From NCBI GenBank assembly GCA_020052935.1, contig JAGVOD010000108.1, positions 1 through 28,094 on the forward strand: a stretch of 28,094 bases of DNA. The letters run 5' to 3'. This document shows, one piece after another, positions 9,722-26,948 of this stretch. Position numbers and translations under genes: made by a program. The stretch's first letter is position 1. The number at the start of each line of letters is the position of its first letter. Origin of the DNA: an archaeon. Lineage in GTDB: Archaea; Nanobdellota; Nanobdellia; Woesearchaeales; UBA11576. The notes beneath the pieces were generated by a model. It ran no database searches and had not been told where the DNA came from. It saw nothing but the letters and a program-made list of their open reading frames with translations.

Positions 9722-9745
9722 TGCATGATATTGATAGACGGAATT

Positions 9746-9894: not shown

Positions 9895-10347
9895 ATGAGG
9901 CTCAAGATAGACGGAAAAGAATTCTGCGTAAGCATACTGCCTGACAAGAAAGGCTACAAGGTAAGGGTAGGGAACAGGCAGATAGAGACATCGCACAGCA
10001 GCCCGCAATTCAGGGTGGGCAGGCAAAAGCACACAGCAGAAGTGAAGAAGAAGGCAGACAACACATTCAACGTAAGCATTGACCAGGACAACTACTCCGT
10101 CGAGATCCTGGACAAGGAGAAAGAGTCGTCACGGTCGATAAAAGCGCCGATGCAAGGCACAGTCATCGAGATAGACGTGAAAGAAGGCCAGGCAGTCCAG
10201 AAAGGCCAGACCATCATCAAGCTCATATCGATGAAGATGGAGAACGAGATAAAGGCAGAACGGGACTGCAGGATAAGAGAGATAAAAGTAAGGAACCGCC
10301 AGACAGTCGCGAAAGGGGAGGTGCTGATTGAGCTCGAAAAACCCTGA
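9895..10347 (+). CDS. accB: Biotin carboxyl carrier protein (biotinyl domain protein)
   Basis: The C-terminal domain is APMQGTVIEIDVKEGQAVQKGQTIIKLISMKMENEI...GEVLIELE, with the biotinyl-lysine in the MKM motif. Confidence 0.8.
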   Translation: MRLKIDGKEFCVSILPDKKGYKVRVGNRQIETSHSSPQFRVGRQKHTAEVKKKADNTFNVSIDQDNYSVEILDKEKESSRSIKAPMQGTVIEIDVKEGQAVQKGQTIIKLISMKMENEIKAERDCRIREIKVRNRQTVAKGEVLIELEKP

Positions 10348-11883
10348 AGGAAGCGTCGCGACAAGAAGATCCAGGAAGGTACTCATCGCAAACAGGGGAG
10401 AGATAGTCCTCAGGATAATAAGGGCCTGCAAAGCGCTCGGCATAAAGACAGTCGCGATATACGCCCCCGACGACAAGAACAGGCTCATAGAGAAGTCGGC
10501 AGACGAGTACGTCCGTATAGACGGAGAGAGCCTCGAATCCACATACCTAAACATAGGCAAGATAATCAAGATAGCCAAGCAAAAAAGGCAGATGCAATCC
10601 ACCCAGGATACGGCTTCCTGGCCGAGAACCCCCTCTTCGCCAGGGCGTGTGAGCAGAACAACATCACATTCATAGGACCGAGCTCGTCAGCGCTCGAAAG
10701 CACAGCAGACAAGATAGGCGCGAGAGGGATCGCACGCGGACTCGGCATGCAGATAATACCCGGCAGCGACGTGCTCAAGAGGAAAGAGGATGCGCTGCGC
10801 TTCGCAGAGAAGCAAGGCTACCCCATAATACTCAAGTCCTGCTATGGAGGAGGAGGGAAAGGCATAAGGACTGCACGCAACAAGAAAGAGCTGCTCGGCT
10901 GCTTCGACGCAGCGGCAAAAGAGGTCGAGACAAGCTTCGGCACACCCCTCATCTACGCAGAGAAATACATCAAGGCAAGACATATCGAGTTCCAGTTCAT
11001 CGCAGACAAGCATGGCAACTACGCCTGCCTCGGCGACAGGGAATGCTCTATCCAGAGACGCTTCCAGAAACTCATAGAGGAAACGCCTTCACCAGCGCTC
11101 ACCAGTAAAGAAAGGAAGAGGATATGCCATGATGTATGCGAGTTGGTAAAGAGCATAGACTATGCTGGCGTCGGCACAGCAGAATTCCTTCTCACACCAG
11201 ACAAGAAGATATACTTCCTGGAAGTCAACCCAAGGATACAGGTAGAGCACGGCATAACCGAGCTGATAACGGGGATAGACATAGCAAAAGAACAGCTGAG
11301 GATAGCGCAGGGACTGCCACTCTCATTCAACCAGGGACAAGTCAGGATAAAGGGTCACGCAATAGAGTGCCGGATCGTCGCAGAGTGCGCAAGAAGAGAC
11401 TTCGCGCCGGCAGGCGGAATCATCTCCAGACTCGAGCTCGGCCAGCCTGACAAAAACAAGCCCGACTACGTCAGGGTGGATGCTGCGCTGTATCCAGGCC
11501 TGAGGATAAACCCTTCATACGACTCGCTCCTGGCAAAGCTTATGGTGCACGGCAGGTCAAGGAAAGAAGCAGTCAAGAAACTTAGGCAGGCTCTTGCAGC
11601 CGCAAGGATAGAAGGCGTGCAGAACACCATAGACTTCTACAAGTTCCTCACCCGGCAGAAGAGATTCATCGACGGCAAGCTCAGCACAGAGTTCATCTCG
11701 GAAAACAGGCTGGTAGAGAAGTACAGCAAGGAAAGCCTCCTGCCAGAGATAGTTGCGTTGATCGCCTCAGCGATATACGAGCACGAAGCAAACCACTTGC
11801 TAAGCTTCCCAACACCAGACCGTTGGGTCGAGAGCTCCAGGAAAGAAGCTGTCGAAGCCGAGCCTGAAGAAAGATGGGGCTAG
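10328..11883 (+). pseudogene. accC: Biotin carboxylase (AccC-type) split into two frames by a 1-nt frameshift in an A6 run
   Basis: Frame 1 (10328-10675) gives KVLIANRGEIVLRIIRA...YLNIGKIIKIAKQK and then nonsense. The other frame reads (K)ADAIHPGYGFLAENPLFARACEQNNITFIGPS from 10588 and continues through GGGGKGIR, IEETPSP and EVNPRIQVEHGITE to the stop at 11883. One extra A in aaaaaa (10581-10586) would restore ...IAKQKKADAIHPGYGF.... The apparent start is TTG at 10328, overlapping the end of accB. Confidence 0.8.
10581..10587 (+). other. Frameshift site: AAAAAAG homopolymer at the accC frame junction
   Basis: Zero-frame codons are CAA AAA AGG. The homologous continuation is in the -1 frame (AAA AAG GCA GAT GCA ATC CAC CCA). 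Confidence 0.8.
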
Positions 11884-11885
11884 CA

Positions 11886-12608
11886 TCAGACGCCTTGCAC
11901 AAGGTCGCCCTCAACAACAATGATTTCACGGCCCTTGGCCCTCACTATCAACGAGCCATCTCCTGATATCCCTGCGGCAACACCCGAAACGACGCCACGC
12001 ACAGTAGTGACCCGCACCTTCTTGCCACCAGAATCCCAAAGCAGCTTCCAGTCACGCAGTATACTGCTGTAACTATCCTTTGTATAAGCATCACAGTATC
12101 TTGCGTAATACCTCAGCACATCTTTCAACAAGGATTCCTTATCTATCTCTATCCCTTTCTCTGACTTCAAGGTGGTGGCTGATGCCAAGCCGACATGATT
12201 ATTGACGTTTATGCCGATGCCGACCACGGTCGCCACACTCTTCCCAGCTACGACATTCTCAGTCAGTATGCCGCAGACCTTCCTGCCATGTATAAGGATA
12301 TCATTCGGCCACTTTATGACTGCTGGCAGGCCTTGCTCCCGGATGGCTTTCGCGACTGAAACCGCTGCAGCAAAAGTGAGCAGGAAAGTCTTTTCAGGCT
12401 TTTTGTGCTTCAGCAATACCGAGAACCACAAACCGCCACGGCCTGAGTGCCACTTCCTGTTGAACCTGCCACGCCCCTTTGTCTGGGTGTCGGCCACGAC
12501 AACCGTGCCGTGAGGCAGCTTCCTGTAGCTCCGCATAATGAACTCATTCGTAGATGCCAGAACGGCATACCGGATGGGATTGTGGAAGTTCATCATGGTG
12601 ACCTGCAA
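11886..12608 (-). CDS. birA: Biotin--protein ligase, class I (no N-terminal HTH domain)
   Basis: GRGRFNRKWHSGRGGLWFSVLL matches the GRGRxGRxWxSPxGxxL motif, and KWPNDIL is present. The ORF-track start is TTG at 12608; an ATG at 12596 (MMNFH...) is the more likely start. The stop lies 2 nt from the accC stop (convergent genes). Confidence 0.85.
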   Translation of the reverse strand: MQVTMMNFHNPIRYAVLASTNEFIMRSYRKLPHGTVVVADTQTKGRGRFNRKWHSGRGGLWFSVLLKHKKPEKTFLLTFAAAVSVAKAIREQGLPAVIKWPNDILIHGRKVCGILTENVVAGKSVATVVGIGINVNNHVGLASATTLKSEKGIEIDKESLLKDVLRYYARYCDAYTKDSYSSILRDWKLLWDSGGKKVRVTTVRGVVSGVAAGISGDGSLIVRAKGREIIVVEGDLVQGV

Positions 12609-12615
12609 TCATAAC

Positions 12616-12781
12616 GACTCTGTCCCAAGTCTCACTCCGTTCGGGCAGCGCCAGATTCGGCCAAGCGCCCATATCAGCGTGAACGCTGTAGCCCCGTAGG
12701 GGGCATCCCCCACTACGCGCCAGATAGTTTAGCGAAGTGGCCTCATAAAGGGCGCTGCCTTCACTTGGGACAGAGCCAGTC
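12616..12781 (+). repeat. Structured intergenic element, copy 2 (166 nt)
   Basis: Three nested stems. The outer 13-bp perfect stem is ctctgtcccaagt (12618-12630) with acttgggacagag (12763-12775). The second stem is ggcagcgcc (12644-12652) with ggcgctgcc (12751-12759). The central stem is cgc-t-gtag (12684-12691) with ctacgcg (12713-12719), enclosing ccccgtagggggcatccccc. Confidence 0.7.
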
Positions 12782-12786
12782 ATATC

Positions 12787-12801
12787 AAAAACTATTTAAA
12801 C
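12787..12801 (+). promoter_or_regulatory. Putative TATA-type box (aaaactatttaaact) for the membrane-protein gene
   Basis: The A/T box resembles the aaactaatttaaa boxes at 4087 and 4960. It lies about 27 nt upstream of ATG 12824, and no Shine-Dalgarno sequence lies between them (leaderless-like spacing). Confidence 0.4.
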
Positions 12802-12823
12802 TGAACTGAATTTTAGGCAGGGC

Positions 12824-13666
12824 ATGGTTCTTGAATCCTTGCTTAATCCGAGAAAGGCAGAGAAGAAGCCATGGGAACTGTTCTTCCTCGGCCTCATATA
12901 CGCGTCATTCTCATTCCTGCTCAGCTACTGGGTATTCAAGGACTACATCAGCATCGTCATGGTCGCCCTGACAGCCATGTGCGCGATGCCGCTCATATAC
13001 AACCTGTTCGCGCTGGAGGCGCAGAAAGACGACCTCCCTCAGAAAGAGTACTGGCTAATCAAGGAGCACACCAAAGCGCTCGAGGCATTCACGTTCATGT
13101 TCCTCGGCTTTGTCACAGCATACTTCCTCATATTCATACTACTGCCAAACGGCCTTTCACAGGAGGTCTTCAGCGCGCAGATCAGCACCATATCGAAGAT
13201 AAAATCAGCGACACCATCCGGAAATCTCATAGAGAGCGCAGCAGGATTCCTCCCCATACTGATGAACAACCTGAAGATACTCATATTCTGCTTCGTACTG
13301 TCATTCTTCTTCGGCGCGGGAGCCATATTCGTCCTTACCTGGAACGCATCGATAGTCGCGGTCGCAATAGGCATATTCGTAAAGAACAGCGTGCTCACGC
13401 ACATCGCACCATCACTATCGACATACTCCCAATTCGTGTCCCTCGGGCTGCTGAAGTACCTCACGCACGGCATATTCGAGATAGCCGCGTACTTTGTCGG
13501 CGCACTGGCTGGGGGGATACTTTCCATAGCAGTGATAAGGCACGAGTTCGGGACACAGGAATTCAAGAAGACAATCTTGGACTCGCTGGACATAATAGCA
13601 CTATCTATAATAATACTCTTCATCGCAGCGTTGATAGAGGTCTTTGTCACGCCAGCGATAGTCTGA
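12824..13666 (+). CDS. Polytopic membrane protein, SpoIIM/DUF95-like
   Basis: About six hydrophobic helices. NNLKILIFCFVLSFFFGAGAIFVLTWNASIV and LTHGIFEIAAYFVGALAGG resemble the conserved N...G..G and HG-x-x-E-x-x-A blocks of the SpoIIM family as I recall them. The long +/- ORFs overlapping this gene (12871..13722, 13039..13872) are shadows. Confidence 0.6.
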   Translation: MVLESLLNPRKAEKKPWELFFLGLIYASFSFLLSYWVFKDYISIVMVALTAMCAMPLIYNLFALEAQKDDLPQKEYWLIKEHTKALEAFTFMFLGFVTAYFLIFILLPNGLSQEVFSAQISTISKIKSATPSGNLIESAAGFLPILMNNLKILIFCFVLSFFFGAGAIFVLTWNASIVAVAIGIFVKNSVLTHIAPSLSTYSQFVSLGLLKYLTHGIFEIAAYFVGALAGGILSIAVIRHEFGTQEFKKTILDSLDIIALSIIILFIAALIEVFVTPAIV

Positions 13667-13934: not shown

Positions 13935-14411
13935 GTGCTAAAGAGGCCTCTAATATTGAGTAAGGAAGAGACAGCTGCAGCCAGCAGCACAGCGACAGCA
14001 GAGAATCCGTTCAAGCCAGACATAGTCATACCAACAACGATATTCTGCGACCGCTCACTCAGTTTTCTAGAAGCGCTTGTCGAGTACCTCAAGAGACAGC
14101 TCAACCTCTCATACCACGAGATCGCGATGCTGACCAACCGCGATGAGAGGAACATCTGGACACTGTACCACAGGGCTGAGAAGAAAAGGACAGAGCACGA
14201 GCCAGACACAAAGAAAGCGCCAGTGATGAACATACCACTAGCGGTCGTTACAGACCGTTCTGTATCGATACTTGAAGTCGTGGTAGAACACCTGCGCGAC
14301 AATACAAAACTCGCGAATCACCAGATAGCCACACTTCTGAACAGGTCAGACAAGACCATATCGACAGTATACATCCGAACAAAGAAGAAACGAACACAAA
14401 ATGCTGCGTGA
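13935..14411 (+). CDS. Small DNA-binding protein with two tandem sigma70-region-4/LuxR-like HTH repeats
   Basis: Internal duplication. Repeat 1 is DIVIPTTIFCDRSLSFLEALVEYLKRQLNLSYHEIAMLTNRDERNIWTLYHRAEKKRTE (nt 14019-14195). Repeat 2 is VMNIPLAVVTDRSVSILEVVVEHLRDNTKLANHQIATLLNRSDKTISTVYIRTKKKRTQ (nt 14223-14399). The LS-x-x-E...eIA-x-L-x-R-x-x-x-T(I/V)...(R/K)KK pattern fits region-4/GerE-type HTH. The start is GTG, and the stop TGA at 14409-14411 overlaps the ATG of the giant gene. Confidence 0.6.
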   Translation: MLKRPLILSKEETAAASSTATAENPFKPDIVIPTTIFCDRSLSFLEALVEYLKRQLNLSYHEIAMLTNRDERNIWTLYHRAEKKRTEHEPDTKKAPVMNIPLAVVTDRSVSILEVVVEHLRDNTKLANHQIATLLNRSDKTISTVYIRTKKKRTQNAA

Positions 14412-17400
14412 TGACACAATAAAGGAAAAGGAAGTAGCCATCGATAGCAGCAGCGCTGCCACGAGCACTCTCGACAGGCTGAACAAGGAAATCAGATCCG
14501 TGGCCAAGAAAGAAGAGAACAAGCTCATCGACATGCTCAAGATAACAGGACCTGCACTCGCAATAGCAGTAGTGCTACTGACAATAGGCCTGCTGGTCTT
14601 CAAGGCAGGTATAACCGGCCAGATCATAGGTGGAGGGGAATACACCACATACGTGCAGAGCATAAATGCGAACATAACAGAATCTCAGGAAAAAACCTGG
14701 GTACTGGATGCGCACCCAGAAGCATTCAACCTCAGGTCAGTAAAGATAAGCGGCCAGATGAAAGGAGAAGGCATCGCAAAAGCATACCTCATCGGCAGCA
14801 ACGGCCTCAAATACAAGATACTCGACGAGACAAAGATACAGGCAGAAGGGCTGGCGAAGATAACCGGCAGCGCAGTCAATGTGCCAGACACAGCAACACC
14901 ACCTGAAGACTCTGCTGGAAGATGGATAAAGACCTTGCTCAACTACCAGTCAGGCACCAGGTGGGACACAGACAACAACGGCATAGCCTACACCGAAGAC
15001 GGCGTCGTAGACCTGAGCGTCGCGCTGACAGAGTTCAACTGGCAGGCAGACGAAAGCAAGCTCTGCACCAAATGGGTAGTTTCATCGCAGGATAGCGGAA
15101 AAGACACCACTGTATGCAACGGCGCTGCGGACTGCTGCGGACTGGTCGGAGTTGCACCAGAGGAAGCTGCGTGGGACGAACCGCTCTATATATTCAACGG
15201 CAAATACTCTGCCACAGAGAACAACATAGTCAGGGCGCAGGTCATATTCCTCAACCAGAGCATCGGAGAAGAGACATACTTAGAGAGCACGACAGGCACT
15301 GCAGCAGAAAAGACAGTGAAGTTCATAGCGAAGCCAGTCATAGACTTCGAAGAAGTCTGCATAGACACATGCGCGCTGCCAGATGGATTAAGCAGCACAG
15401 AATACACGCTGGAGTTCGAGATAGGCGAAGGCGTGGAGATATACATAGAGAACATGACATACTCTTTAGAGGAGCTGGCAGCCCTACCTGAGAACACGAC
15501 CGCGACAGAAGAAGCCAACGTAACAGAAACAGCAAACATCACAACGAGCGATGCAGAGGGAGCCAACGTAAGCTACGAGAAGGTCAAGACAGACACCAAG
15601 TACGACGCGATAGTCGACGAGACGCTGTACGACAACTCCACAGACACCTTGATTGTGGTGTTCCACCACGACTCAGCGATACCGCTGCCCATATCAGTCA
15701 AAGGCAATGTTGAGTACACGCTCGACAGGCAGGAGAGCAGGGCAGGAGAGAACGTCACACTAACTGTCACGAACTGGAGCGATAATAGATTCAGGATAGT
15801 CGTAGGCGCGCACACAGAGGTGCTGGAGTTCGGAGAGGCCAGAAAAGTCAAGATACATCCTGAGATCAAGAACAGCAGAGGAGACAGCCAGAGGGCCAAG
15901 GTCAGGTTCGTAGACAACATACTTGATGAAACAGTTAAAGAGACCACAGAGAACGTCACCGAGACAACGATTGACGAAGGAGAATATGACCTAGAGATGA
16001 CGCTCGAGAACATGTCAGTCAAGACCATCAGGATAAATAGCGCCCAGATGTACGAAAACAGCACAGACTTCCTGAAAGTCGAGGACGTAGAGATAAACAA
16101 GATATCGGGAATCGACGCAGTCAAGTCATACGCCATAGACCCGACAGCGATAAACTTCACCAACGCGACAGTGACTGCGACTGCTACCGGAACTGCGCTG
16201 TACAAATGCAAGGAATGGAACTTCACGCTGCAGCAGTGCAACGGCACATGGACATTCCTGCAGAGCATAACGCCAGGGCAGGAGTATACGTTCACGCTGA
16301 CGCCTGAAGATCTGGGATTTGCAGAAGGAAGTCCATCAGCAGGAACACCTGATTACGGATGGATATATGATGTGAATGGCTATAATGAAGAATCCGGTAG
16401 TTATGCCAACACACAAGCAGACGACACAGCTTATTATGCAGCAGGAGAAATAAGTGCTGGTGAGTCGTTGGATTCATACATAAATCTAGAGTATAACATA
16501 ACCCAATTGAACATCTCTCCTTCACAGATAACCCGACTGCAATTCAACATAACTTATTGCCATGACGGTTCTAACTGGGCACCAGCAGCCTGCGACGGAG
16601 ATGCAGCAGAAGGAACTGTCAGCGGAGCCCAGAATGTAGAGATATACAATTGGACTTCCGGAGCCTGGACAGACATAGGAGACCTAAGGACAACTGACGG
16701 TGGCTTCACAATAACTGACAATTACAATGTAACATCAGGATTCAGCAATTATGTAAACTCAACCAACTGGATCAGAATAAGGTATGAAGCGGATTATGAT
16801 GATGGTGCTAGCCAGGATAGTTGGCTTGTTATTGACTATGCTCCTTTGACAGTTACGTACACAAATTCATCCAACTCTGTCCCGACACAAGGAACACCAA
16901 TACTCAACTCAACAACAGGAGCGAACACCACCAACGAGAACCTGACATGCTACAACCAGAGCACATACGACCCTAATGGCGACTCTGTCAAGAACATATT
17001 CAACTGGTACAAGAACTCAACAGCGATAGCCGTGCTGAACATGCCATTCGATGGCGGAAGCAACTCCACATACACGAAAGATTACTCAGGCAATAGCAAC
17101 AACGGAGCAGTCACTGGAGCCACATGGAGCAGTACCTCTGGCAGGGATGGAAAAGGAGCATACACATTCGATGGAGTCAACGACTATGTCAGCATCCCGA
17201 GCGCAGCATCCCTCAACCCGACCAGCATAACCGTGTCTGCCTGGGTAAAGACAAACAGCCTGCCCTCAACCTACCCGAGAATATTCTCGAAAGAGACGAC
17301 AACAACAGCCAACCCATACAGCATGTTCATAAGACAATCAGACAGTGTGCTGAGGTTCTGTATAGGTGACGGCTCGACAGAAGAGTGTGCAGGGACCTAC

Positions 17401-20400
17401 ATAACATCCACTGGAACCTGGCAGCATATAGTCGGCACATATGACGGCAGCACGATAAGGACATATGTCAATGGAAACCTGGATGACACCCGCGCATCCA
17501 CTATAGGCATACTCTCCAGGACAACCAACTTGCTCATAGGCAACAACCCGACCAATGCAAGGCAGTTCAACGGCACAATAGATGAGGTAAACATATACAA
17601 CAGGGCGTTGTCCGCAGCGCAGATACTCACACTATACCAGAACAGGACAGACAGGATAGTATCAAATGAGACCACTACAGGAGACGTCTGGAAGTGCGCA
17701 GTGACACCAAATGACGGGACTGTCGACGGGACGACGCTGGAATCTAACACGCTGACGATAGTGAATACGAGCAGCGGAGGCAATACCACGACAACAGCCA
17801 ACGTAACATCTACTGTCTCACAGAGCAGCGACGACGCAGAAGAGAAAACCGGAACCGGCGTCATGGACCTTGCAAGCACAGACCTCGAGCTGACTATGGA
17901 AGCGAGCGCCCAGGAAATAGGCATGAGATTCCAGAACATAAACCTCCCAAGAAGCGCAACAATAACCAACGCACATATAGAGTTCGAGATAGACGAATAC
18001 TACACAGACGCGACAAACCTCAACATATACGGCCAGGCATCAGACAATGCTGCGACCTTCTCCAGCACAGGATACGACATAACATCCAGGACGAAGACAG
18101 CAGCTTCAGTCGCGTGGAGCAGCGTATCCGCACCAGCAGTAGATGCCAAGCTGAGCACGCCGAACATCTCAGCCATAATCCAGGAGATAACCAGCAGGGC
18201 AGGATGGACTGCCAACAGCTCGCTCGTGATAATAATAAACGGAACAGGAAAGAGGACTGTGGAATCATACGATGGAGAGCCGACGGCAGCGCCGAAATTG
18301 AGGATAAACTACACAGCAGCGTCAAATACCGCACCCACGCAAGGAACGCCCTTGCTGATCTCCACGTACGGCACGAACTACACCACAGAGAACCTGACTT
18401 GCTACAACCAGTCGACATACGATGCGGATGGCGACCCTGTGAAGAGCATATTCAACTGGTACAAGAACTCAACAGCGATAGCCGTGCTGAACATGCCGTT
18501 CGAAGGAGGATCAAACGCGACTTACACCAAAGACTACAGCGGAAACAGCAATCATGGAACCGTGAGCGTAGCTACGTGGAGCAGCACCTCTGGCAGGGAT
18601 GGAAAAGGAGCATACACTTTCAACGGAAGCGCATACATAGACGCAGGAACCAGCAGCACGCTGCTGGTCGGAACACGGTTCACTCAGGAGGCTTGGATAT
18701 ACCTGACGATAACAGATGACGAGTATCACGGATTCCTAGGATATCAGCCCGCCAGCACAGAACAGAGGCCACCCTCCATCTGGGTATACCAGCGCACAAA
18801 GATACACGCAGGATTCGGCAACGGCACGACATGGGACGGATTCATAACAGGAGACATAATAACCAACAATGCATGGAACCACGTGGTCGTGACGTTCGAC
18901 GGAACCAATTATACCGTATATGTCAACGGCACTTCTAGATACAGCACAACATCCCACGCAGGAAGAGTGCCTTACGCGACGCACATCAGGAACATAGGAA
19001 GAGTTGATAACTACTTCAACGGCACCATAGATGAAGTTCGGGTGTACAACACCGCGCTCAACGCGTCACAAGTCTATTCACTGTACAGCTACGGCGCAGC
19101 AAGGATGACAAGCAGCCAGCTCACCACAGGAGATGTCTGGAAGTGCGCAGTCACGCCCAACGACGGGACTGTCGACGGGACGACGCTGGAATCTAACACG
19201 CTGACGATAAGGGCCGCGGCCGACACAACATCGCCAGGCACAATCAGCAGCCTTACTGAAAGAAGCACAGGAACGACGTGGGTATACTGGAACTGGACAA
19301 ACCCGACAGACAGCGACTTCGCGTCAGCGATAGTATACTTAAACGGGACTAACCTGGCAAACACGAGCAGTAACTACTACAACGCCACAGGACTCGCGTC
19401 ATCTACTACGTACCAGCTGACAGTCAGGACAAAAGACACAACAGGAAACGTCAACACGACAAACGTGTCCGACAACGCAGCGACACAAGACGGGACAGCA
19501 CCGCAGTACAGCAACATAAACGACCAGAACAACACCGCATACTCCACCTCGGGAAGCTACCAGTTCAACTGCACATGGACAGACAATGTCGCACTGAACC
19601 AGGTCAGGCTGGAGTTTGCCGGAACGAATTACACGCCGAGCAGCAGCGGAGACGAATATTATCACAGCATAAGCGGACTTGCAGCAGGCAACTACACATA
19701 CAAGTGGCACGCGAATGACTTTGTAGGCAATGCCAACCAGACCAGCACAAGGACGTTCACAATCAACAAGGCAGGCGTCGCGCTTACACTGACAGCAAGC
19801 CCTGCCTGGAACAATACATACGGAACACAGACATCAGTGAACTGCACTGCAAATACTTCAGTGACCACCCAGCTTTATAGGAACGGAACACAGACAAGCA
19901 AGCCAGACACGCAGACGTTGGCTGCAAGCGCCTATCTATACTTGTGCAACTTCACAGACACACAGAACCATACAGGAACAGCTCAGAACAGCACACTGAC
20001 AATAAATAAGGCAAGCTCATCGGTCACTTTGCTGCTGAACAGCACTGCTGGAAATATGAACACCACAATGCCTGCAACAATAAACATAACAGGCACCAAG
20101 ACAAGCGGCGACAGCGTTGCGATATACCTCTACAGGAACGGGACACCCATCAACTCAGGATTCTCGCCGCTGACCAATGTCTCGCTTTACAGCACAGCAG
20201 CATACTACAACATAACCGCGATATACCCTGAAAGCCAGAACTACACCTCATCAAGCGATACACACTGGCTGACCATAAGCGATACCACCTCCCCATCCAG
20301 CATATCCAACTTGGGAGAGAGCGGAGCAGGAGCCAACTGGATAAGATGGACCTGGACAAACCCGAGCGACGCAGACTTCAGCCAGGGAATAATATACCTG

Positions 20401-23400
20401 AACGGGACCAACATGGCGAATACCAGCAACAACAACTACAACGCAACAGGACTGAGCGGGTACACAAGCTACAGGCTCACAGTCCACACCAAGGACACCA
20501 CCGGCAACGTCAACAACACAGACGTGTCCGACAACGCAATGACGCTCGACACACTGCTACCGCAGTACAGCAACATACAAGACCAGAACAACACAGTATA
20601 CACATCCGGCGGGACGTACCAGTTCAACGCGACCTGGACAGACAACGTAGCAGTGAATGAAGTCAAGTTCGAGTTCAATGGCGTCAATTATACCAACCCG
20701 AGCGCAAACGGCAATGAATACTACATATCGATGAGCAACCTCGCTGCAGGAAGCTACACATACAGATGGCACGCGAACGACTTCCTCGGCAACTCGAACA
20801 GCACGCCAACGAGGACATTTGTCGTTGCGAAAGGGACTGCGACGCTCAGCCTATCAGCGACGCCAGGATGGAGCACGACCTACGGGATGCAGACAACGGT
20901 GAACTGCAGCGGAAACGCCGCGACGCAGCTCTACAGGAACGGCACGCTCGTATCGATACCGGACACCCAGACACTGGCGGCAGTCAGCCACCAGTACATA
21001 TGCAACGCCAGCGAGACGACCAACTACAGCGCGACATCAACAAACAACACGCTGACCATAAGCAAGGCAGCATCTTCACTCGAGCTGCTGTTGAACGGGA
21101 CAGACTCCGATATCATTATAGAAAAACTATCGAACGCAAACATCACCGGGACAAAGACAACCGGAGACAATGTCGCGATATACCTCTACAGGAACGGCAC
21201 GCTGATCAACTCAGGCATATCTCCACTGACAAACACGTCACAATACTCCTCTGTAGCGGCATACAACATCACAGTCACCTATACTGAGAGCCAGAACTAC
21301 ACAGCAAGCAGCCATACACACACCATATCCGTAAATGACACCACGCCGCCAGGCACTGTAAGCGGAATCGCAGAATCTAGCGCAGGAACAAGTTGGATCA
21401 CGTGGAACTGGACAAATCCTGCAGAAAGCGACTTCAGCCAGGTGATAATATACGTGAACGGGACCAATGTAGCCAATACAAGCAATAATTACTACAACGC
21501 CACAGGCCTCAACACGTATACGACATATGAGATAACGATCAACACCAAGGACACGTATGGCAATGTCAATACAAACAACGTCGCAGATACTGCAACGACA
21601 TTGGACAACACGCCTCCGACGTATTCTGGGCTCAATGACGAAAACGGCACAACATACGTGCCGATCAAGGATTACCAGTTCAACGCGACATGGACAGACA
21701 ACGTAGCAGTCGATGAAGTGAAGTTCGAATTCGACGGAGTCAACTATACCAACCCGAGCGTAACTGGCGATGAATACTACATCTCACTGAGCAACCTCGC
21801 AGCAGGAAGCCACACCTACAAGTGGCATGCGAGCGACACCGCAGGAAACTGGAACAACACTGGCACGATAAGCTTCACGATAGAGAAAGCAGCCACAGCA
21901 CTCAACATAACAGCAATACCTGGCTGGACAACAACATACGGAACACAGACGACAGTAGCCTGCTACGCAGACAACAATGAAGTGGTGGAACAGCTATACA
22001 GGAATGCAACGTCTGTAACAGCGCCAGACACCCAGACACTCGCAGGAGGAAGCTATAATTATACTTGCAGCGCGGCAGCGACGCAGAACTATTCATCGGC
22101 AGAGACCAGCGACACACTGACTGTCCAGAAGGCGACGCCAGAGATAACACTCGTGCTCAACGGAAGCGAAGAGAACATAACTATCGAGGTCGGCAGCTAC
22201 GTGAATGAGACCGGACTGCATGACCACACCTGCCTGCTCGAGATGTATGAATCAGCAATACTGGTGAAGTCAGGCAGCAGCCCGCTCACGCAACTGACGC
22301 AATACAACACCCTCGGAACATACAACGTCACATTGAGGCATCCGGAGACACAGAACTATACGAGCATCGAAGAGACACTGTGGGTGACTGTGCAGGACAC
22401 CACGGCGCCGACGGTCTCGCTCATCGCGCCAGCAGATAACGCGACAATAGGCGGCAGCACGCAGACATTCATGTTCAACTTCACAGACAACCATCACTCT
22501 ACTGCAGACTGCACGCTGTACATCAACGACACGCCCAGCGGGACGAACAGCAGCGCATCCGCGGGGACGACAATATCAATAACCAACAGCACCCTGGCTG
22601 AAGGAGAGAACAACTTGTATGTCAACTGCAGCGACGGATCCGGCAACACAGGACAGAGCGGGACAAGGACGCTGAATGTAGACAGGACGCCGCCAGACAT
22701 CGAGGAACTGATACCTGAGCAAGGAGATATCGTCGGCTATGTCACGCTGATAGACATACACTCCGCCGACTCCCTGGCAGGCGTGCACATAACCCGCTAC
22801 GAGATAAGGAACTCCTCGGGCAACGTGATAACGTCAGGGTCAAATACCACAGACGACCTGCATGAGAACTGGAACACCACAACATCCCCGGACGGGAACT
22901 ACACCATGACAGCGTACGTCAACGACACTGTCGGCAACACAGCCAATGCCTCAACAGAGTTCACGGTGAGCAACACCCTGCCGTACATACAGGTACTCGA
23001 GCCAGAGTATGACAACGAGAAGTTCAACTCGGACTTCAACCTCGACATCTGGTGCCAGGACAACAACATCGACACGTCGATGTACAACGTGACAGACAAC
23101 GTCGGAGGAGTGGTCCAGTCAGGCTTAGACGCATCCGCAAACATGACGAGCCACCACTTCACAGACCTCGTCAATGTATCATCAATCATTGACGGGAACT
23201 ACACGATAAACGTATACGCGAACGACACAACAGGCTACGTGACAACAAAGACCCGCACATTCATCATAGACAAGACCGCTCCTTCCTACTCTGCAATAGG
23301 CGAGCCTGCTGACCCAAGCACGTACTCTCCTTCGGCGAGCTACAACTTCAGCATAAACTGGACAGACAACAGGTCAGTAAGCTCGGTGGTGCTGGAATTC

Positions 23401-26400
23401 AACGGAACGAACTACACAAGCATAACGCAGTCAGGCAACAAGTATTCTAAAGCGTTGTCATCCCTTGCAGGAGGGATATATAACTACAGATGGCATGCGA
23501 GAGATGAAGTCGGAAACTGGAACAGCACTGCCCTGCTCAACTTCACCATAAATCCAGCAACAGCATCTTGCGTGCTAGCATTCGACAAGTCATCACCGCA
23601 GACCTACGGAACAGCGATAAAGGCGAACTGCAGCTGCTCAGGCGAGAGTGCATGGGCAACGCTATGGAGAGACCACACAAACGTGGATGGAACAGAGGAC
23701 AACCTGCTCGTGACATTGGCTGCAGGCAGCTATGCATACGAATGCAACAGGAGCACGAGCAACAACTACACAAGCGCGTCAGACTCTGGAACGTTTGTCA
23801 TCAACAAGGCTTTGACCTTGCTGAACATGACTGCAATACCTGGCTGGAGCGGCGCGACATACGGCACAGAGACCATAGTCAGCTGCAGCGCAAACAACAA
23901 CGAGGTCGTGGAACAAATATACAGACAAGGCACGGTCGTCTCGATACCAGACACGCAGACACTGGCCGCAGGAAACCACATATACACCTGCGAAGCAGCA
24001 GACACGCAGAACTACACCGGAGAGAGCTCTGGAGAGACACTGACGATAGGCAAGGCAAACTCTTCATTGACACTCACCCTCAACGGGACAGCCAACAACC
24101 TCACGATCGAAAGGATGACTGCAGCAGACATAACCGCGACAAGGATAATAGGAACTGGCTACGTAGAACTATACAGGAACGGCACCCTGCTAGGCAGCGG
24201 GACATCGGTCACGGACGTATCAACATACAACACCGCGACGATGTATAACATAACCGCAACATACAATGCGACGCAGAACCATTCATCCAGCAGGTCAACA
24301 CTGTGGCTCACGGTCAGCGATACCATACCGCCAGGCCCGATATCGAACCTGCTGCTGCTGAACAAGGGACAGAACTACCTCTACTGGGTATGGACCAACC
24401 CGACAGACGCAGACTTCCACCACACCAACGTCTACCTGGACGGAGTGTTCAAGACCAGCACATCAGCTGAATACTATTATGCGACAGGCCTGAACCACTC
24501 CACCAACTACACGCTGTCGCTCAGGACAGTCGACGCTTCAGGGACGCTGGGAAGCTGGGTGAATGACACACAGATGACCCAGTACAACTGCACAGAGAGC
24601 TGGGCTACACTATATACTACTTGCAGGAGCAACGACACTCGCACAAAATATTATAATGACACAACCGGCTGCGGAACGACACACTTCCTGCCTGCAGACA
24701 ACGGCACGATAACGACATGCGACTACATAATAAGTACAAAGTTCAACGGCAGCACGACGAATTTTACCAGGGACAGCCTCATAGACCTAAGTGGCGTAGT
24801 TCTAGATATAACATCTTATGGAAAGATAGAGTTCCTTGAGAGCATAACAATAGCAAGAAGCCTCGACCTCGACACATACGCAAACATAGGGCCCAACCAC
24901 GCGTCCATCAGCTCAACACCGCTTGGAGAGTTCAACAAGTCAGCAAGGATAACCATCTACAATGTGAATTTCACAGTGCTGAGAATAATGGCCGACGGAG
25001 AAGAGTGCAACAGCACAGTATGCACGCAGATGAACTACTCGAACGGCACATTCGTGTTCAACGTGACGCACTTCACCAACTACTCTGTAGAGGAAGGCCC
25101 GTACTGCGGCGATTCTTCCTGCAATGGAGGGGAGACATGCAACTCATGCACTGCTGACTGCGGAAGCTGCCCGCTCGGAGGCGGTGGAGGAGGCGGAGGC
25201 GGTGGAGGAGGCGGAGGCAGCGCCAGGGAAGAGAAGAAATGCGAGCCCAACTGGCTCTGCTACTCATGGAACCCTTGCGTGAATTACGTGCAGAACAGGA
25301 AATGCTTCGATACCAACGGCTGCGGCACAGAAGAAGGCATGCCTGAGCTCGAGAAGAGCTGCATACTCGGCTGCGCAGAAAGATGGGCCTGCGGAGACTG
25401 GGGCAAGTGCACAGAGGCAGGAGTCCAGACACGCACATGCAATGATTTGGCAAAGTGCGGTTCAGAATCAAGGAAACCGCTGACTGTCCAGCCATGCGAG
25501 TATGACTTCTGCAGCGACGACAAGCAGAACAACGGCGAACAAGGAATAGACTGCGGCGGAAGCTGCAGGGACTGCACAAGGGAAGAGCTGCAGGAGGCAG
25601 AGATGAAGAAGAACCTCCTCACAGGCGAAGCGATAACAGTCGCACCATACGAACAGCCCAACCCGTTCTACCTGATGCCGCTATTGCTGCTGCTCGTGGT
25701 CTTGATCGCAGTCATAGCGCTGCACAAAGCAGACATATCTGAAAAGATGAAGAAAGTGCTGACAGCACTGCACTTCCTGCTGATAATAGGCATACTTGTG
25801 ATGCTGCTGCTGACATTCAACATAGCTCAGCCCACAGGGGCAGCAGTGGTTGAATTCGTGGGTGAATCAGGTGCATCAGGCATCGCACTGACAGTCCTCG
25901 TCTCAGCACTGCTGCTAGGAGGCATGGCATACGTCGCGGTGAGCAGAGGCCTCGTCGACCTCGGAGATATGGAGCAGTACTACTCGAAGTCTAAATACTG
26001 GATAGGATACGCAGTCCAGAAGATAGAATGGTCAAAGAAGAAAAAGATCAGGACAAACATAGAGGTCGAGACGAGATACGAGACTCCGACGACGCAACCA
26101 CAGGCAGCTTTGAAGACACCAACCCTGCCATCAGAGAAGAAAACCGCAACAGCAGAGACTGCAGTAGCGACCGCAGTGACGACTGCGCGGCCGGATGGGA
26201 AGAGAATGACTGCTGCGGAGACAATAGCTCCGAAAGAGCAGATGATGTTCGGCAGCATAATGACAGAGATCAAAGACCTGAACTTGAAGATAGAGGAGCT
26301 GAAAAAGGAAGTCGTGAGTGTAGCACCGGCGAGGCCAGAAAGCGTCAAGGAAAAGAGACAGATAGAGGCCAAGAATGCAAAAGACCTCATGCCAAAGCCA

Positions 26401-26694
26401 GCCCTCGTGCCAAAGGCAGGAATCAAAGCGCCATTCCAAAAAATATCTCCGCTGAAAGTGCTGCGCGTCCAGCCAAGGACAATAATAACCGAAAGGAAAC
26501 CAGTCATCAAGCCTGTCACGAATCCAATCATGCCGAAAGCAGCGGCAAAGCCTGTGCAGCCTGCAGCAAGGCCCAAGATCGATGCGAAAATCGATGCTAA
26601 GAAAGATCCGCTCAAGGCAAGGTTCAGGACAGACGACCCGCTCAAGATAGCAGATATGATACTCAAGAGAAGCCAAAAGAGGCCGAGAAGATGA
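14401..26694 (+). CDS. Giant (4097 aa) doubly membrane-anchored, sequon-rich surface protein / putative adhesin
   Basis: Single 12.3-kb ORF. An N-terminal TM helix (PALAIAVVLLTIGLLVF, nt 14551-14607) follows a charged 50-aa N-terminus. Two LamG/ConA-like modules carry DYSGNSNxG..W....GRDGKGAYTF.G ... NGTIDEV.(I/V)YN.AL. FN3-like modules carry W.W.NP.D.DF....(I/V)Y(L/V)NGTN.ANTS.N.YNATGL...T.Y......D..GN. Ig-like modules carry WTDN...V..V.(L/F)EF.G.NYT. A run of Cys-rich modules, a Gly14 run, three C-terminal TM helices (about nt 25660-25945) and a 250-aa K/P/A/T-rich tail complete the protein. N-x-S/T sequons are extremely dense; for example, 6 occur in the roughly 70 residues WVYWNWT...NVSDNAATQ. 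Confidence 0.9.
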   Translation: MLRDDTIKEKEVAIDSSSAATSTLDRLNKEIRSVAKKEENKLIDMLKITGPALAIAVVLLTIGLLVFKAGITGQIIGGGEYTTYVQSINANITESQEKTWVLDAHPEAFNLRSVKISGQMKGEGIAKAYLIGSNGLKYKILDETKIQAEGLAKITGSAVNVPDTATPPEDSAGRWIKTLLNYQSGTRWDTDNNGIAYTEDGVVDLSVALTEFNWQADESKLCTKWVVSSQDSGKDTTVCNGAADCCGLVGVAPEEAAWDEPLYIFNGKYSATENNIVRAQVIFLNQSIGEETYLESTTGTAAEKTVKFIAKPVIDFEEVCIDTCALPDGLSSTEYTLEFEIGEGVEIYIENMTYSLEELAALPENTTATEEANVTETANITTSDAEGANVSYEKVKTDTKYDAIVDETLYDNSTDTLIVVFHHDSAIPLPISVKGNVEYTLDRQESRAGENVTLTVTNWSDNRFRIVVGAHTEVLEFGEARKVKIHPEIKNSRGDSQRAKVRFVDNILDETVKETTENVTETTIDEGEYDLEMTLENMSVKTIRINSAQMYENSTDFLKVEDVEINKISGIDAVKSYAIDPTAINFTNATVTATATGTALYKCKEWNFTLQQCNGTWTFLQSITPGQEYTFTLTPEDLGFAEGSPSAGTPDYGWIYDVNGYNEESGSYANTQADDTAYYAAGEISAGESLDSYINLEYNITQLNISPSQITRLQFNITYCHDGSNWAPAACDGDAAEGTVSGAQNVEIYNWTSGAWTDIGDLRTTDGGFTITDNYNVTSGFSNYVNSTNWIRIRYEADYDDGASQDSWLVIDYAPLTVTYTNSSNSVPTQGTPILNSTTGANTTNENLTCYNQSTYDPNGDSVKNIFNWYKNSTAIAVLNMPFDGGSNSTYTKDYSGNSNNGAVTGATWSSTSGRDGKGAYTFDGVNDYVSIPSAASLNPTSITVSAWVKTNSLPSTYPRIFSKETTTTANPYSMFIRQSDSVLRFCIGDGSTEECAGTYITSTGTWQHIVGTYDGSTIRTYVNGNLDDTRASTIGILSRTTNLLIGNNPTNARQFNGTIDEVNIYNRALSAAQILTLYQNRTDRIVSNETTTGDVWKCAVTPNDGTVDGTTLESNTLTIVNTSSGGNTTTTANVTSTVSQSSDDAEEKTGTGVMDLASTDLELTMEASAQEIGMRFQNINLPRSATITNAHIEFEIDEYYTDATNLNIYGQASDNAATFSSTGYDITSRTKTAASVAWSSVSAPAVDAKLSTPNISAIIQEITSRAGWTANSSLVIIINGTGKRTVESYDGEPTAAPKLRINYTAASNTAPTQGTPLLISTYGTNYTTENLTCYNQSTYDADGDPVKSIFNWYKNSTAIAVLNMPFEGGSNATYTKDYSGNSNHGTVSVATWSSTSGRDGKGAYTFNGSAYIDAGTSSTLLVGTRFTQEAWIYLTITDDEYHGFLGYQPASTEQRPPSIWVYQRTKIHAGFGNGTTWDGFITGDIITNNAWNHVVVTFDGTNYTVYVNGTSRYSTTSHAGRVPYATHIRNIGRVDNYFNGTIDEVRVYNTALNASQVYSLYSYGAARMTSSQLTTGDVWKCAVTPNDGTVDGTTLESNTLTIRAAADTTSPGTISSLTERSTGTTWVYWNWTNPTDSDFASAIVYLNGTNLANTSSNYYNATGLASSTTYQLTVRTKDTTGNVNTTNVSDNAATQDGTAPQYSNINDQNNTAYSTSGSYQFNCTWTDNVALNQVRLEFAGTNYTPSSSGDEYYHSISGLAAGNYTYKWHANDFVGNANQTSTRTFTINKAGVALTLTASPAWNNTYGTQTSVNCTANTSVTTQLYRNGTQTSKPDTQTLAASAYLYLCNFTDTQNHTGTAQNSTLTINKASSSVTLLLNSTAGNMNTTMPATINITGTKTSGDSVAIYLYRNGTPINSGFSPLTNVSLYSTAAYYNITAIYPESQNYTSSSDTHWLTISDTTSPSSISNLGESGAGANWIRWTWTNPSDADFSQGIIYLNGTNMANTSNNNYNATGLSGYTSYRLTVHTKDTTGNVNNTDVSDNAMTLDTLLPQYSNIQDQNNTVYTSGGTYQFNATWTDNVAVNEVKFEFNGVNYTNPSANGNEYYISMSNLAAGSYTYRWHANDFLGNSNSTPTRTFVVAKGTATLSLSATPGWSTTYGMQTTVNCSGNAATQLYRNGTLVSIPDTQTLAAVSHQYICNASETTNYSATSTNNTLTISKAASSLELLLNGTDSDIIIEKLSNANITGTKTTGDNVAIYLYRNGTLINSGISPLTNTSQYSSVAAYNITVTYTESQNYTASSHTHTISVNDTTPPGTVSGIAESSAGTSWITWNWTNPAESDFSQVIIYVNGTNVANTSNNYYNATGLNTYTTYEITINTKDTYGNVNTNNVADTATTLDNTPPTYSGLNDENGTTYVPIKDYQFNATWTDNVAVDEVKFEFDGVNYTNPSVTGDEYYISLSNLAAGSHTYKWHASDTAGNWNNTGTISFTIEKAATALNITAIPGWTTTYGTQTTVACYADNNEVVEQLYRNATSVTAPDTQTLAGGSYNYTCSAAATQNYSSAETSDTLTVQKATPEITLVLNGSEENITIEVGSYVNETGLHDHTCLLEMYESAILVKSGSSPLTQLTQYNTLGTYNVTLRHPETQNYTSIEETLWVTVQDTTAPTVSLIAPADNATIGGSTQTFMFNFTDNHHSTADCTLYINDTPSGTNSSASAGTTISITNSTLAEGENNLYVNCSDGSGNTGQSGTRTLNVDRTPPDIEELIPEQGDIVGYVTLIDIHSADSLAGVHITRYEIRNSSGNVITSGSNTTDDLHENWNTTTSPDGNYTMTAYVNDTVGNTANASTEFTVSNTLPYIQVLEPEYDNEKFNSDFNLDIWCQDNNIDTSMYNVTDNVGGVVQSGLDASANMTSHHFTDLVNVSSIIDGNYTINVYANDTTGYVTTKTRTFIIDKTAPSYSAIGEPADPSTYSPSASYNFSINWTDNRSVSSVVLEFNGTNYTSITQSGNKYSKALSSLAGGIYNYRWHARDEVGNWNSTALLNFTINPATASCVLAFDKSSPQTYGTAIKANCSCSGESAWATLWRDHTNVDGTEDNLLVTLAAGSYAYECNRSTSNNYTSASDSGTFVINKALTLLNMTAIPGWSGATYGTETIVSCSANNNEVVEQIYRQGTVVSIPDTQTLAAGNHIYTCEAADTQNYTGESSGETLTIGKANSSLTLTLNGTANNLTIERMTAADITATRIIGTGYVELYRNGTLLGSGTSVTDVSTYNTATMYNITATYNATQNHSSSRSTLWLTVSDTIPPGPISNLLLLNKGQNYLYWVWTNPTDADFHHTNVYLDGVFKTSTSAEYYYATGLNHSTNYTLSLRTVDASGTLGSWVNDTQMTQYNCTESWATLYTTCRSNDTRTKYYNDTTGCGTTHFLPADNGTITTCDYIISTKFNGSTTNFTRDSLIDLSGVVLDITSYGKIEFLESITIARSLDLDTYANIGPNHASISSTPLGEFNKSARITIYNVNFTVLRIMADGEECNSTVCTQMNYSNGTFVFNVTHFTNYSVEEGPYCGDSSCNGGETCNSCTADCGSCPLGGGGGGGGGGGGGGSAREEKKCEPNWLCYSWNPCVNYVQNRKCFDTNGCGTEEGMPELEKSCILGCAERWACGDWGKCTEAGVQTRTCNDLAKCGSESRKPLTVQPCEYDFCSDDKQNNGEQGIDCGGSCRDCTREELQEAEMKKNLLTGEAITVAPYEQPNPFYLMPLLLLLVVLIAVIALHKADISEKMKKVLTALHFLLIIGILVMLLLTFNIAQPTGAAVVEFVGESGASGIALTVLVSALLLGGMAYVAVSRGLVDLGDMEQYYSKSKYWIGYAVQKIEWSKKKKIRTNIEVETRYETPTTQPQAALKTPTLPSEKKTATAETAVATAVTTARPDGKRMTAAETIAPKEQMMFGSIMTEIKDLNLKIEELKKEVVSVAPARPESVKEKRQIEAKNAKDLMPKPALVPKAGIKAPFQKISPLKVLRVQPRTIITERKPVIKPVTNPIMPKAAAKPVQPAARPKIDAKIDAKKDPLKARFRTDDPLKIADMILKRSQKRPRR
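16873..17760 (+). repeat. LamG-containing segment, copy 1 (intragenic duplication)
   Basis: NSVPTQGTPILNST...NLTCYNQSTYDPNGDSVKNIFNWYKNSTAIAVLNMPFDGG...TTGDVWKCAVTPNDGTVDGTTLESNTLTI. The flanks are nearly identical at nucleotide level to copy 2, with a 50-nt stretch (atattcaactggtacaag...ctgaacatgcc) and a 48-nt stretch (gacgggactgtcgac...ctgacgata) both identical. Confidence 0.8.
18325..19209 (+). repeat. LamG-containing segment, copy 2 (intragenic duplication)
   Basis: NTAPTQGTPLLIST...NLTCYNQSTYDADGDPVKSIFNWYKNSTAIAVLNMPFEGG...TTGDVWKCAVTPNDGTVDGTTLESNTLTI. The central LamG core is strongly diverged from copy 1, while the flanks are conserved. Confidence 0.8.
19222..22395 (+). repeat. Three tandem modules of about 353 aa (FN3-like domain plus three Ig-like domains each)
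   Basis: Module starts are DTTSPGTISSL (19222), DTTSPSSISNL (20281) and DTTPPGTVSGI (21337), with the next boundary DTTAPTVSL at 22396. The periods are 1059, 1056 and 1059 nt. A degenerate fourth set follows at about 23269-24590. Confidence 0.8.
25177..25218 (+). repeat. Gly14 linker encoded by an imperfect GGN repeat
   Basis: gga ggc ggt gga gga ggc gga ggc ggt gga gga ggc gga ggc is in frame, lying between the CGDSSCNGGETCNSCTADCGSC module and the W.C..W..C modules. Confidence 0.85.
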
Positions 26695-26734
26695 GAATGG
26701 AAAATCATGCTCTTAAATGCCCTACAAAGAAACG

Positions 26735-26900
26735 GGCGTTGTTGAAAAGTTCGCTCTCCGAGCGGGTGCCGTCAGGCTACGCTCTCCGTGTTTCTCAACC
26801 ATATCGCGACATCCCCGTAGGGGGCAACCCCCTGTCGCGAGCGAAGATGATGCGAGAAATCGCTCCGCAAAAGGACGGCACCACCCTTTTCAACAACGCC
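26735..26900 (+). repeat. Structured intergenic element, copy 3 (166 nt, best-preserved)
   Basis: Three nested stems. The outer 15-bp perfect inverted repeat is ggcgttgttgaaaag (26735-26749) with cttttcaacaacgcc (26886-26900). The second stem is ggtgccgtc (26765-26773) with gacggcacc (26874-26882). The central stem is cgcgaca (26805-26811) with tgtcgcg (26833-26839), enclosing tccccgtagggggcaaccccc. Confidence 0.7.
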
Positions 26901-26948
26901 AAATGCACGAAAACATTTTTATACTATCACTCACTGGAGGTGTAGATA

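Follow-up and report, generated by a model that had tools for sequence, protein, structure and literature searches.

Three related hairpin elements lie on the plus strand of the window, a stretch of 28,094 nucleotides covering positions 1 to 28,094 of contig JAGVOD010000108.1 from a woesearchaeal archaeon (assembly GCA_020052935.1). [quoted passage not shown] A preliminary description of the window had proposed a folded nucleic acid under selection, either a structured RNA or a hairpin recognised by a protein, and had held the elements to be unlike classic MITEs. The latter distinction does not survive comparison with related elements, which display conserved GGC...GCC ends, exact 9-bp duplications and multiple near-identical copies per genome. 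Judged by the ends and the duplications, the inference of a structured RNA that is not a MITE is largely refuted. The description had named conserved termini with target-site duplications and a match to a known MITE or transposase system as evidence against its own inference; the termini and duplications are found, and the elements match neither a previously described MITE nor an identified transposase.

Related elements that share a core with the window copies follow three architectures: class A, the window type, of about 165 bp; class K, of 131-134 bp; and class B, a Y-shaped hairpin. The full class A element spans about 165 bp; at its termini lie inverted repeats of 15 bp that read GGCYnnnnnnnRAAn, and its insertion produces a 9-bp target-site duplication. 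Among near-identical copies in the metagenome-assembled genome (MAG) A_NAN_12, similarity stops exactly at GGCTCTTAGGCAAAT...ATTTGCCTAAGAGCC, with perfect 9-bp direct repeats outside. At least 12 independent class A copies, drawn from different MAGs, carry GGCY...RGCC inverted repeats (at least 9/10 match) directly adjoined by exact 9-bp duplications, and 9 is the modal duplication length in the census of loci. Class K elements have GTATTTGTTTAGCAYC ends and exact 8-bp duplications, which suggests a second type of transposase that would act on a homologous interior. The GTA... ends and 8-bp duplication of class K resemble those of the IS66 family, a likeness taken as a lead only.

Other repeats of the fetched loci bear on mobility as well. 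A separate MITE of 134-136 bp (L017:719-854, L071:1218-1351, L055:3977-4110), present in the same genome as core-bearing copies, combines the same GGCCGCGATGAAA ends with exact 9-bp duplications around an unrelated interior (GCACCCCG...GGGGGTGC), and the core is therefore not needed for transposition of the GGC type. The two copies of one MITE at L071:2562-2901 and L071:7638-7811 have their flanking 9-mers swapped (TATTGATGG, TCTTGGGTT), the sign of a 5-kb inversion that arose when inverted copies recombined. At the same TATTGATGG 9-bp target, this locus also contains an insertion of a different MITE; both observations are indirect evidence of presence/absence polymorphism.

Class A copies are long imperfect palindromes. 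Their outer stem P1 is formed by the inverted repeats; inward from it follow a small side hairpin, the second stem P2, a middle part that varies and the apical stem P5, capped by C4-GNA-G4-N3-4-C5. The stem of the side hairpin varies among relatives (CTTGC/GCAAG, CGCC/GGCG, CAC/GTG) around a TTC/TCC loop. The terminal region of class K is homologous to class A P2, and a covariance model built from 20 relatives (R1) places class K at model positions ~30-150; class A is therefore a K-like inner unit with an added outer inverted repeat and side hairpin. Examples of class K, with ends GTAT(T/G)TG..., are L039:6365-6522, L041:1552-1704, L095:3860-3980 and L005:3741-3851. Class B is seen at L010, L018, L020, L053, L073, L083, L087, L092, L101 and L102, and is built of an outer stem that varies, GGCGGCAG/CTGCGCC, a side hairpin within ACGG..CCTA and an apical stem with the common core; a run of A before the element and a run of T after it are common, and GGC ends are absent. 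Inverted dimers of class B are present at L014, L016, L042 and L062. An association of class B hairpins with tRNAs was considered and is not general.

In a collection of species-representative genomes, the exact core is found in at least 102 contigs, nearly all of them from MAGs or single-amplified genomes of Woesearchaeota/Nanoarchaeota. About 15 Methanosarcinales-labelled contigs, one Euryarchaeota and one Bacilli contig, all of these being MAG labels, are the others among the matches listed, and one cyanobacterial and two Streptomyces core matches look like chance. A_NAN_12 accounts for ~25 of the at least 102 core contigs and holds many near-identical copies in several sub-families; several other genomes are also multi-copy. 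Element sizes range from 129 to 168 bp. Viral contigs (IMG/VR) gave no match to the core.

The three plus-strand copies of the preliminary description are present in the window, and all the stems and blocks it quoted are readable in the sequence. Its spans hold for copy 1 (9746-9874) and copy 3 (26735-26900), and the end of copy 2 has to be moved from 12781 to 12777. A covariance-model scan, which the description had proposed, recovers exactly these three elements and nothing else significant: run with filters off, R1 scores copy 3 at 131.8 bits (E = 1e-30), copy 2 at 110.3 bits (2e-25) and copy 1 at 44.6 bits (1e-9). The core CCCCGTAGGGGGCANCCCCC has exactly three matches with at most 3 mismatches in the window (9799, 12692, 26813) and none in 100 dinucleotide-preserving shuffles of it. 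The two blocks reported as common to copies 1 and 3, AAATCGCTCCGCAAA and CAGGCTACGCTC, are exact in both. RNA folding z scores against shuffles are -7.0 for copy 3, -5.3 for copy 2 and -2.85 for copy 1, and DNA folding of copy 3 gives -8.4. The open reading frames (ORFs) that overlap the copies differ from copy to copy, and the copies are separated by indels and paired substitutions.

Copy 3 is a complete class A MITE of 166 bp, corresponding to R1 positions 1-166, with all its parts on the plus strand. Its left terminal inverted repeat, the 5' arm of P1 (GGCGTTGTTGAAAAG, 26735-26749), pairs perfectly, at 15/15 positions, with the right terminal inverted repeat, the 3' arm (CTTTTCAACAACGCC, 26886-26900). 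The side hairpin P1a, CGCTC-TCC-GAGCG (26752-26764), is the counterpart of the CTCGCTYCGCTCGG box of relatives. It is followed by the 5' arm of P2 (GGTGCCGTC, 26765-26773), whose partner is GACGGCACC (26874-26882), and by the 5' arm of the apical stem P5 (TCGCGACA, 26804-26811), whose partner is TGTCGCGA (26833-26840). The apical stem encloses the core, CCCC-GTA-GGGGG-CAA-CCCCC (26813-26832). Copy 2 (12616-12777, plus strand) is a complete class A MITE of 162 bp, with P1 at 12616-12630/12763-12777, where 14/15 terminal positions are complementary, P2 at 12644-12652/12751-12759 and the core at 12692-12711. Copy 1 (plus strand) is a 129-bp derivative with the core allele CCCCGTAAGGGACATCCCCC at 9799-9818. 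The absence of an outer stem from this copy had been recognised correctly; the copy comprises the inner unit only, as class K does, and its terminal stem is homologous to P2 of copy 3. It has neither an outer inverted repeat nor a target-site duplication.

A search for flanking target-site duplications, likewise proposed in the description, finds them exact and 9 bp long in relatives and decayed at copies 2 and 3. The left duplication of copy 2, AATCATAAC (12607-12615), agrees with the right one, AGTCATATC (12778-12786), at 7/9 positions, and that of copy 3, AAAGAAACG (26726-26734), agrees with AAATGCACG (26901-26909) at 6/9. The binomial chance of a match at least this good is ~0.0013 for copy 2 (at least 7/9) and ~0.01 for copy 3 (at least 6/9). 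A metagenome scan for an empty site orthologous to that of copy 3, made with the downstream protein, recovered no relatives and no empty site.

The ends of class A resemble those of a known insertion sequence. The 18-bp inverted repeat of IS903B, GGCTTTGTTGAATAAATC, was confirmed at both ends of the 1057-bp IS5-family element on plasmid Rts1, and the left end of copy 3 resembles it. Several class A ends, for example GGCTTTGTTGAAAAC, are identical to the IS903 inverted repeat over the first 12 nt; GGCTTTGGTGAAAAT and GGCGTTGTTGAAAAG are further ends of the class. IS903 makes 9-bp duplications. Given these similarities and the 9-bp duplications, the ends of class A and their staggered cut are IS903-group-like. 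Class A is probably mobilised in trans by an IS903-group (IS5 family) DDE transposase that would be encoded elsewhere in the genome.

The preliminary description had the stems co-varying between copies and the loops conserved. The stems do co-vary, far beyond chance; the conservation of loops holds in part, as most of the unpaired interior is as variable as the stems. Across 31 non-redundant relatives, conservation is confined to the 20-nt core, the CTYCG loop of the side hairpin and a gcTCgcc..agG block. Among 131 model matches, standard pairs are formed by 87.6% of stem cells, against 61.5% after shuffling and 39-48% when the arms are slid by 1-3 columns, and none of 500 shuffles reaches the observed pairing. 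P1 columns are 95% paired and P2 columns 98%, with double-sided changes at all 15 pairs of P1 and all 9 pairs of P2. In an alignment-free comparison, arms pair better within one copy than between different copies, with p = 3e-22 for the apical, 5e-15 for the middle and 2e-9 for the outer arms; the apical arms pair at -9.3 kcal/mol within a copy versus -5.0 kcal/mol between copies. P2 differs among sub-families that share one inverted repeat in one genome, and its complementarity therefore reflects pairing itself and not a shared binding site for the transposase.

The complementarity of the arms appears to last longer than the marks of insertion. In copies with 1-4 duplication mismatches, the two duplications differ at 26/108 sites, versus 9/288 P1 and P2 pairs that are non-Watson-Crick (Fisher p = 1.5e-9). 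Copies 2 and 3 of the window taken alone show the same tendency, with 5/18 duplication sites against 1/48 stem pairs (p = 0.005). These counts are suggestive of arms that outlast decayed duplications, and the selection on the fold invoked in the preliminary description retains this much: something acts on intra-strand complementarity, as the arms are Watson-Crick after the duplications have decayed. Selection on fold-back of single-stranded DNA or on a cruciform may keep the arms complementary, after insertion too. Template-switching during replication, which would perfect quasi-palindromes, may be an alternative or joint cause, and conversion from other copies a third. Template-switching is known to render imperfect inverted repeats more perfect (PMC7202029).

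On paper, the core at the apex can form either of two mutually exclusive hairpins, as had been described. In variant copies recovered without use of the exact core, the pattern is C4-loop-G4-spacer-C5, with a free spacer of 3-4 nt and the loops GTA, GAA, GCA, GGA, GTAA, GTGA and GNAT. The changes GCCC..GGGC and TCCC..GGGA seen in such variants are compensatory for the first hairpin, CCCC-GNA-GGGG, and favour it; nearest-neighbour folding instead favours the G5:C5 hairpin. GNA and GNNA loops closed by C:G are a signature of DNA mini-hairpins, melting near 76 °C versus 39 °C for RNA, and the GCGNAGC and GCGNNAGC DNA mini-hairpins are far stabler than their RNA equivalents (PMC13037366). Single-strand priming sites and phage N4's hairpin promoters contain mini-hairpins capped by GNA (PMC13037366). 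The apex CCCC-GNA-GGGG may, with low confidence, be a DNA mini-hairpin. Such a mini-hairpin might nucleate the fold-back or bind a protein, and would be cargo rather than a requirement of transposition; this step, too, is tentative. An intramolecular triplex of the C4, G5 and C5 runs was rejected for its strand polarity: the G run has both C runs antiparallel to it.

An alternative core allele, CCCCGTAAGGGAC(A/C)NCCCCC, is shared by window copy 1 (9799-9818) with L085, L068, L102, L014, L017 and L020. Its loop, GTAA, belongs to the GNNA type and sits on a 3-bp stem. The allele recurs across several unrelated MAGs and seems to be old rather than the outcome of independent decay. At L071:848-1051, L076:5292-5473 and L097:4653-4855 a mini-hairpin of ~38 nt, GGTCACTCCGTTCCCAGGTTCCTCGGAGCCTCGGAACC, lies inside the core between GGGGGCA and ACCCCC. 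Larger apex insertions are seen at L068:6010-6217, L089:4597-4770, L014:2069-2322 and L059:3308-, and the apex may be an insertion hot-spot.

Several points weigh against the explanation of the elements as MITEs moved by an IS903-like transposase. Taken alone, the window copies provide weak evidence of mobility, with decayed duplications only and none at copy 1. The assignment to IS903 is indirect, resting on end similarity and duplication length. Neither the window nor ~0.65 Mb of flanking DNA contains a recurrent or IS903-like transposase: a search of the ~0.65 Mb for GGC-type inverted repeats 250-3000 bp apart with duplications gave no autonomous element, all-against-all clustering of 1330 flanking ORFs gave neither an autonomous element nor a recurrent neighbouring protein, and the IS903B transposase, compared by tblastn with the window and every fetched locus, gave no match. 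Three observations are left unexplained by a plain MITE model, namely the arms that outlast the duplications, the 20-nt apex kept across backbones with different ends and duplication lengths, and the differences in P2 between sub-families with the same repeat. The material itself carries biases: the test of decay requires full P1 and P2 columns and is biased towards intact copies, the relatives were fetched by the exact core so that core conservation looks inflated, and all of them lie on MAG contigs.

In a bolder proposal, the apical stem and C4-GNA-G4-N3-4-C5 form an independent single-stranded DNA or cruciform signal, read by some archaeal or mobile-element protein such as a priming, transcription or recombination factor, carried as cargo by at least two unrelated MITE backbones and kept folded by selection at single loci after insertion. 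We hold this proposal to be unlikely; if it were true, a structure-specific DNA signal, undescribed in archaea so far, would be scattered through DPANN genomes. A rival explanation regards the same module as domesticated or selfish, bound by a primase, polymerase, recombinase or nucleoid protein, with the MITE backbones as mere carriers. The same core is indeed present in at least three scaffolds (class A with GGC ends and 9-bp duplications, class K with GTAT ends and 8-bp duplications, and class B without such ends), GGC-type transposition can do without it, the arms persist in place once the duplications have decayed, and both single-strand priming sites and N4 promoters are marked by GNA-capped DNA mini-hairpins (PMC13037366). 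The protein-recognised hairpin of the preliminary description is a candidate for the apex motif. Against the carrier explanation, the surroundings of the copies revealed no associated protein gene. Orientations of neighbouring copies are not clustered either (18 same and 14 opposed pairs in a hand count), some copies have a degenerate core or have lost it (L151, for example), in others insertions interrupt it, and the apparent conservation of the core is partly an artefact of exact-core fishing. Interlocus gene conversion or template-switching would also explain the maintenance of the arms without a function. The carrier explanation is rather improbable.

A structured non-coding or cis-regulatory RNA family, the main inference of the preliminary description, in which the stems co-vary and the loops stay fixed because a transcript must fold, would account for the strong stem co-variation and the very stable folds, and would fit the multi-helix architecture with its conserved apical motif and a small side hairpin whose loops are UUC/UCC. 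Copy 1, being inside an operon, would be transcribed along with it, and bacterial MITEs such as bcr1 are transcribed and display compensatory changes at the RNA level (PMC3184786). Terminal inverted repeats with target-site duplications of fixed length speak against this explanation, as does the composition of the pairs. G:U makes up 0.6% of the cells in P2 and 2.3% in P1, or about a third of the non-Watson-Crick cells, which is the share expected from random decay; G:U is as rare as any other mismatch. The orientation of the elements relative to genes is unbiased (upstream genes, 33 co-oriented and 46 opposed; downstream genes, 45 and 40), and the plus strand has no advantage in folding, the minus strand folding slightly better in 64 copies and the plus strand in 29. 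The GNA triloop of the apex is a motif of DNA stability that is far weaker in RNA (PMC13037366). The comparison with Rfam that the preliminary description had called for gave no family at gathering score in the window and only noise on the elements at E ≤ 10, and Rfam 15 found only tRNAs on 8 related loci. A partial match to the C/D-box RNA sR39 (13.7 bits) is noise. The consensus of the elements contains neither a TATA-like element nor an internal promoter. Since G:U is rare, the orientation unbiased, and both an Rfam match and an internal promoter absent, the co-variation points to a fold-back of DNA and not of RNA, and the structured-RNA explanation is very unlikely. Kink-turn, C/D-box and bulge-helix-bulge motifs were rejected after a hand check of ATGATG/CTGA and the internal loops, which revealed no tandem G·A geometry and no 3-4-3 bulges; the ATGATG/CTGA motif is not conserved across copies.

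REP/RAYT-like or IS200/IS605-derived palindromes, moved as single-stranded hairpins by an HUH tyrosine transposase that recognises GTAG beside a GC-rich hairpin, are a highly improbable source of the elements. In the core, GTAG directly adjoins a GC hairpin on its 5' side (GTA-GGGGG-CAN-CCCCC), a REP-like arrangement, and the elements are intergenic, multi-copy and mosaic in the manner of BIMEs; against this, 9- or 8-bp duplications and long inverted repeats are foreign to HUH single-strand transposition, GTAG is not conserved, the loop being GNA with any middle base, and no Y1 transposase lies nearby. Integron attC sites, whose structure is conserved and sequence is not, are hardly credible here: the elements do form imperfect palindromes, 130-166 nt long, whose stems vary, and integrons have been reported in archaeal MAGs, but R''/R' boxes are absent, the arms read GTT 5' and AAC 3', the opposite of RYYYAAC...GTTRRRY, the centre is conserved where that of attC is variable, target-site duplications are present, and the neighbours are housekeeping genes with neither a cassette array nor an integrase.

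Among known systems, a MITE of the IS903 group is the nearest in its GGC ends, alike over the first 12 nt in several sub-families, and in its 9-bp duplications, and the elements are small, non-coding, multi-copy and intergenic. They differ from that group in their DPANN host, in the absence of a cognate insertion sequence from the loci searched, in the free variation of inverted-repeat positions 5-11 between sub-families, and in an interior that is a conserved modular hairpin and not a simple deletion remnant. The elements bcr1 of Bacillus, ERIC, Correia/nemis and Chunjie are alike in their length of ~130-170 bp, inverted repeats, duplications and very stable long hairpins, and Chunjie has 9-bp repeats too. 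Folding into long hairpins is classical for MITEs, and compensatory base changes are seen in bcr1 (PMC3184786). For these structured bacterial MITEs, structure has been argued at the RNA level and transcripts are documented, whereas the avoidance of G:U and the neutrality of orientation point here to DNA. None of these four is known to have a 20-nt apical motif common to backbones of differing ends and duplication lengths.

REP, REPIN and BIME repeats share with the present elements GC-rich hairpins with a GTAG-type motif, a mosaic structure, an intergenic location and a high copy number. REPs are without terminal inverted repeats and duplications, both of which are present here, and GTAG is not conserved in the present family. 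The GNA-capped signals of the phage G4 origin, ssiA, the virion RNA polymerase promoters of phage N4 and rolling-circle single-strand origins likewise have C:G-closed GNA or GNNA loops on a GC stem (PMC13037366) and rod-like fold-backs with variable stems and a conserved loop motif. They are single-copy functional sites of phages and plasmids, whereas the present elements are chromosomal and dispersed by transposition, with an extra 3' C5 run that has no counterpart.

The elements would represent a previously uncharacterised MITE superfamily specific to Woesearchaeota/Nanoarchaeota, whose tiny genomes are a place where dense repeats are unexpected; a search of the literature found no description of the family. 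In a bulk census, one of the archaeal genomes densest in MITEs is woesearchaeal (PMC11602168). The elements visibly reshape genomes, as in the L071 inversion and the insertion into an operon spacer in the window. The covariance model and the rules for ends and duplications can be used to annotate these repeats and to avoid mistaking them for novel RNAs. Strong base-pair co-variation in DNA palindromes means that RNA discovery based on covariation needs a control for G:U and strand asymmetry. The persistence of the arms and the GNA-capped apex could reveal a DNA-hairpin signal or quasi-palindrome template-switching in archaea.

The genes of the window include an acyl-CoA carboxylase and fatty-acid-type cluster, with a carboxyltransferase gene at 8053-9570, a biotin carrier gene at 9895-10347 and a BirA-like gene on the minus strand, followed by a SpoIIM-like gene and a gene for a 4097-aa protein with LamG/Ig domains. 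Copy 1 is located in the operon spacer between the carboxyltransferase and biotin carrier genes, copy 2 between the divergently oriented BirA-like and SpoIIM-like genes, and copy 3 after the giant 4097-aa gene. The interval between the carboxyltransferase gene and copy 1 contains another hairpin (9662-9735), a perfect 12-bp inverted repeat CAAAAATTTCGC...GCGAAATTTTTG; with no relatives in the fetched loci and no model match, it is not a member of the family. The biotin carboxylase is encoded in two ORFs separated by ~70 nt, 10328-10675 (Biotin_carb_N) and 10747-11883 (ATP-grasp and C-terminal domains), and the split may reflect a frameshift, a pseudogene or an error of sequencing, or else the gene may be truly split. 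A 1245-aa protein (337-4074, minus strand) has no Pfam match.

The SpoIIM-like and helix-turn-helix proteins of the window have their best local matches in core-bearing Woesearchaeota/Nanoarchaeota contigs, which, like the distribution of the core, agrees with a probable DPANN origin of the window. Four genomes have a core-bearing or related element immediately upstream of a membrane-protein gene of the SpoIIM family, on the same strand (window 12616-12824; L092:175-330; L070:1698-1892; L151:2292-2501). A general cis-element of SpoIIM genes was rejected, as 1 of 80 homologous loci chosen regardless of the element carries one (L151, directly upstream); a local insertion preference near SpoIIM-family genes is possible. 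The 4097-aa protein (14401-26694, plus strand) contains Laminin_G_3 and bacterial Ig-like domains and is typical of the giant surface proteins of DPANN archaea.

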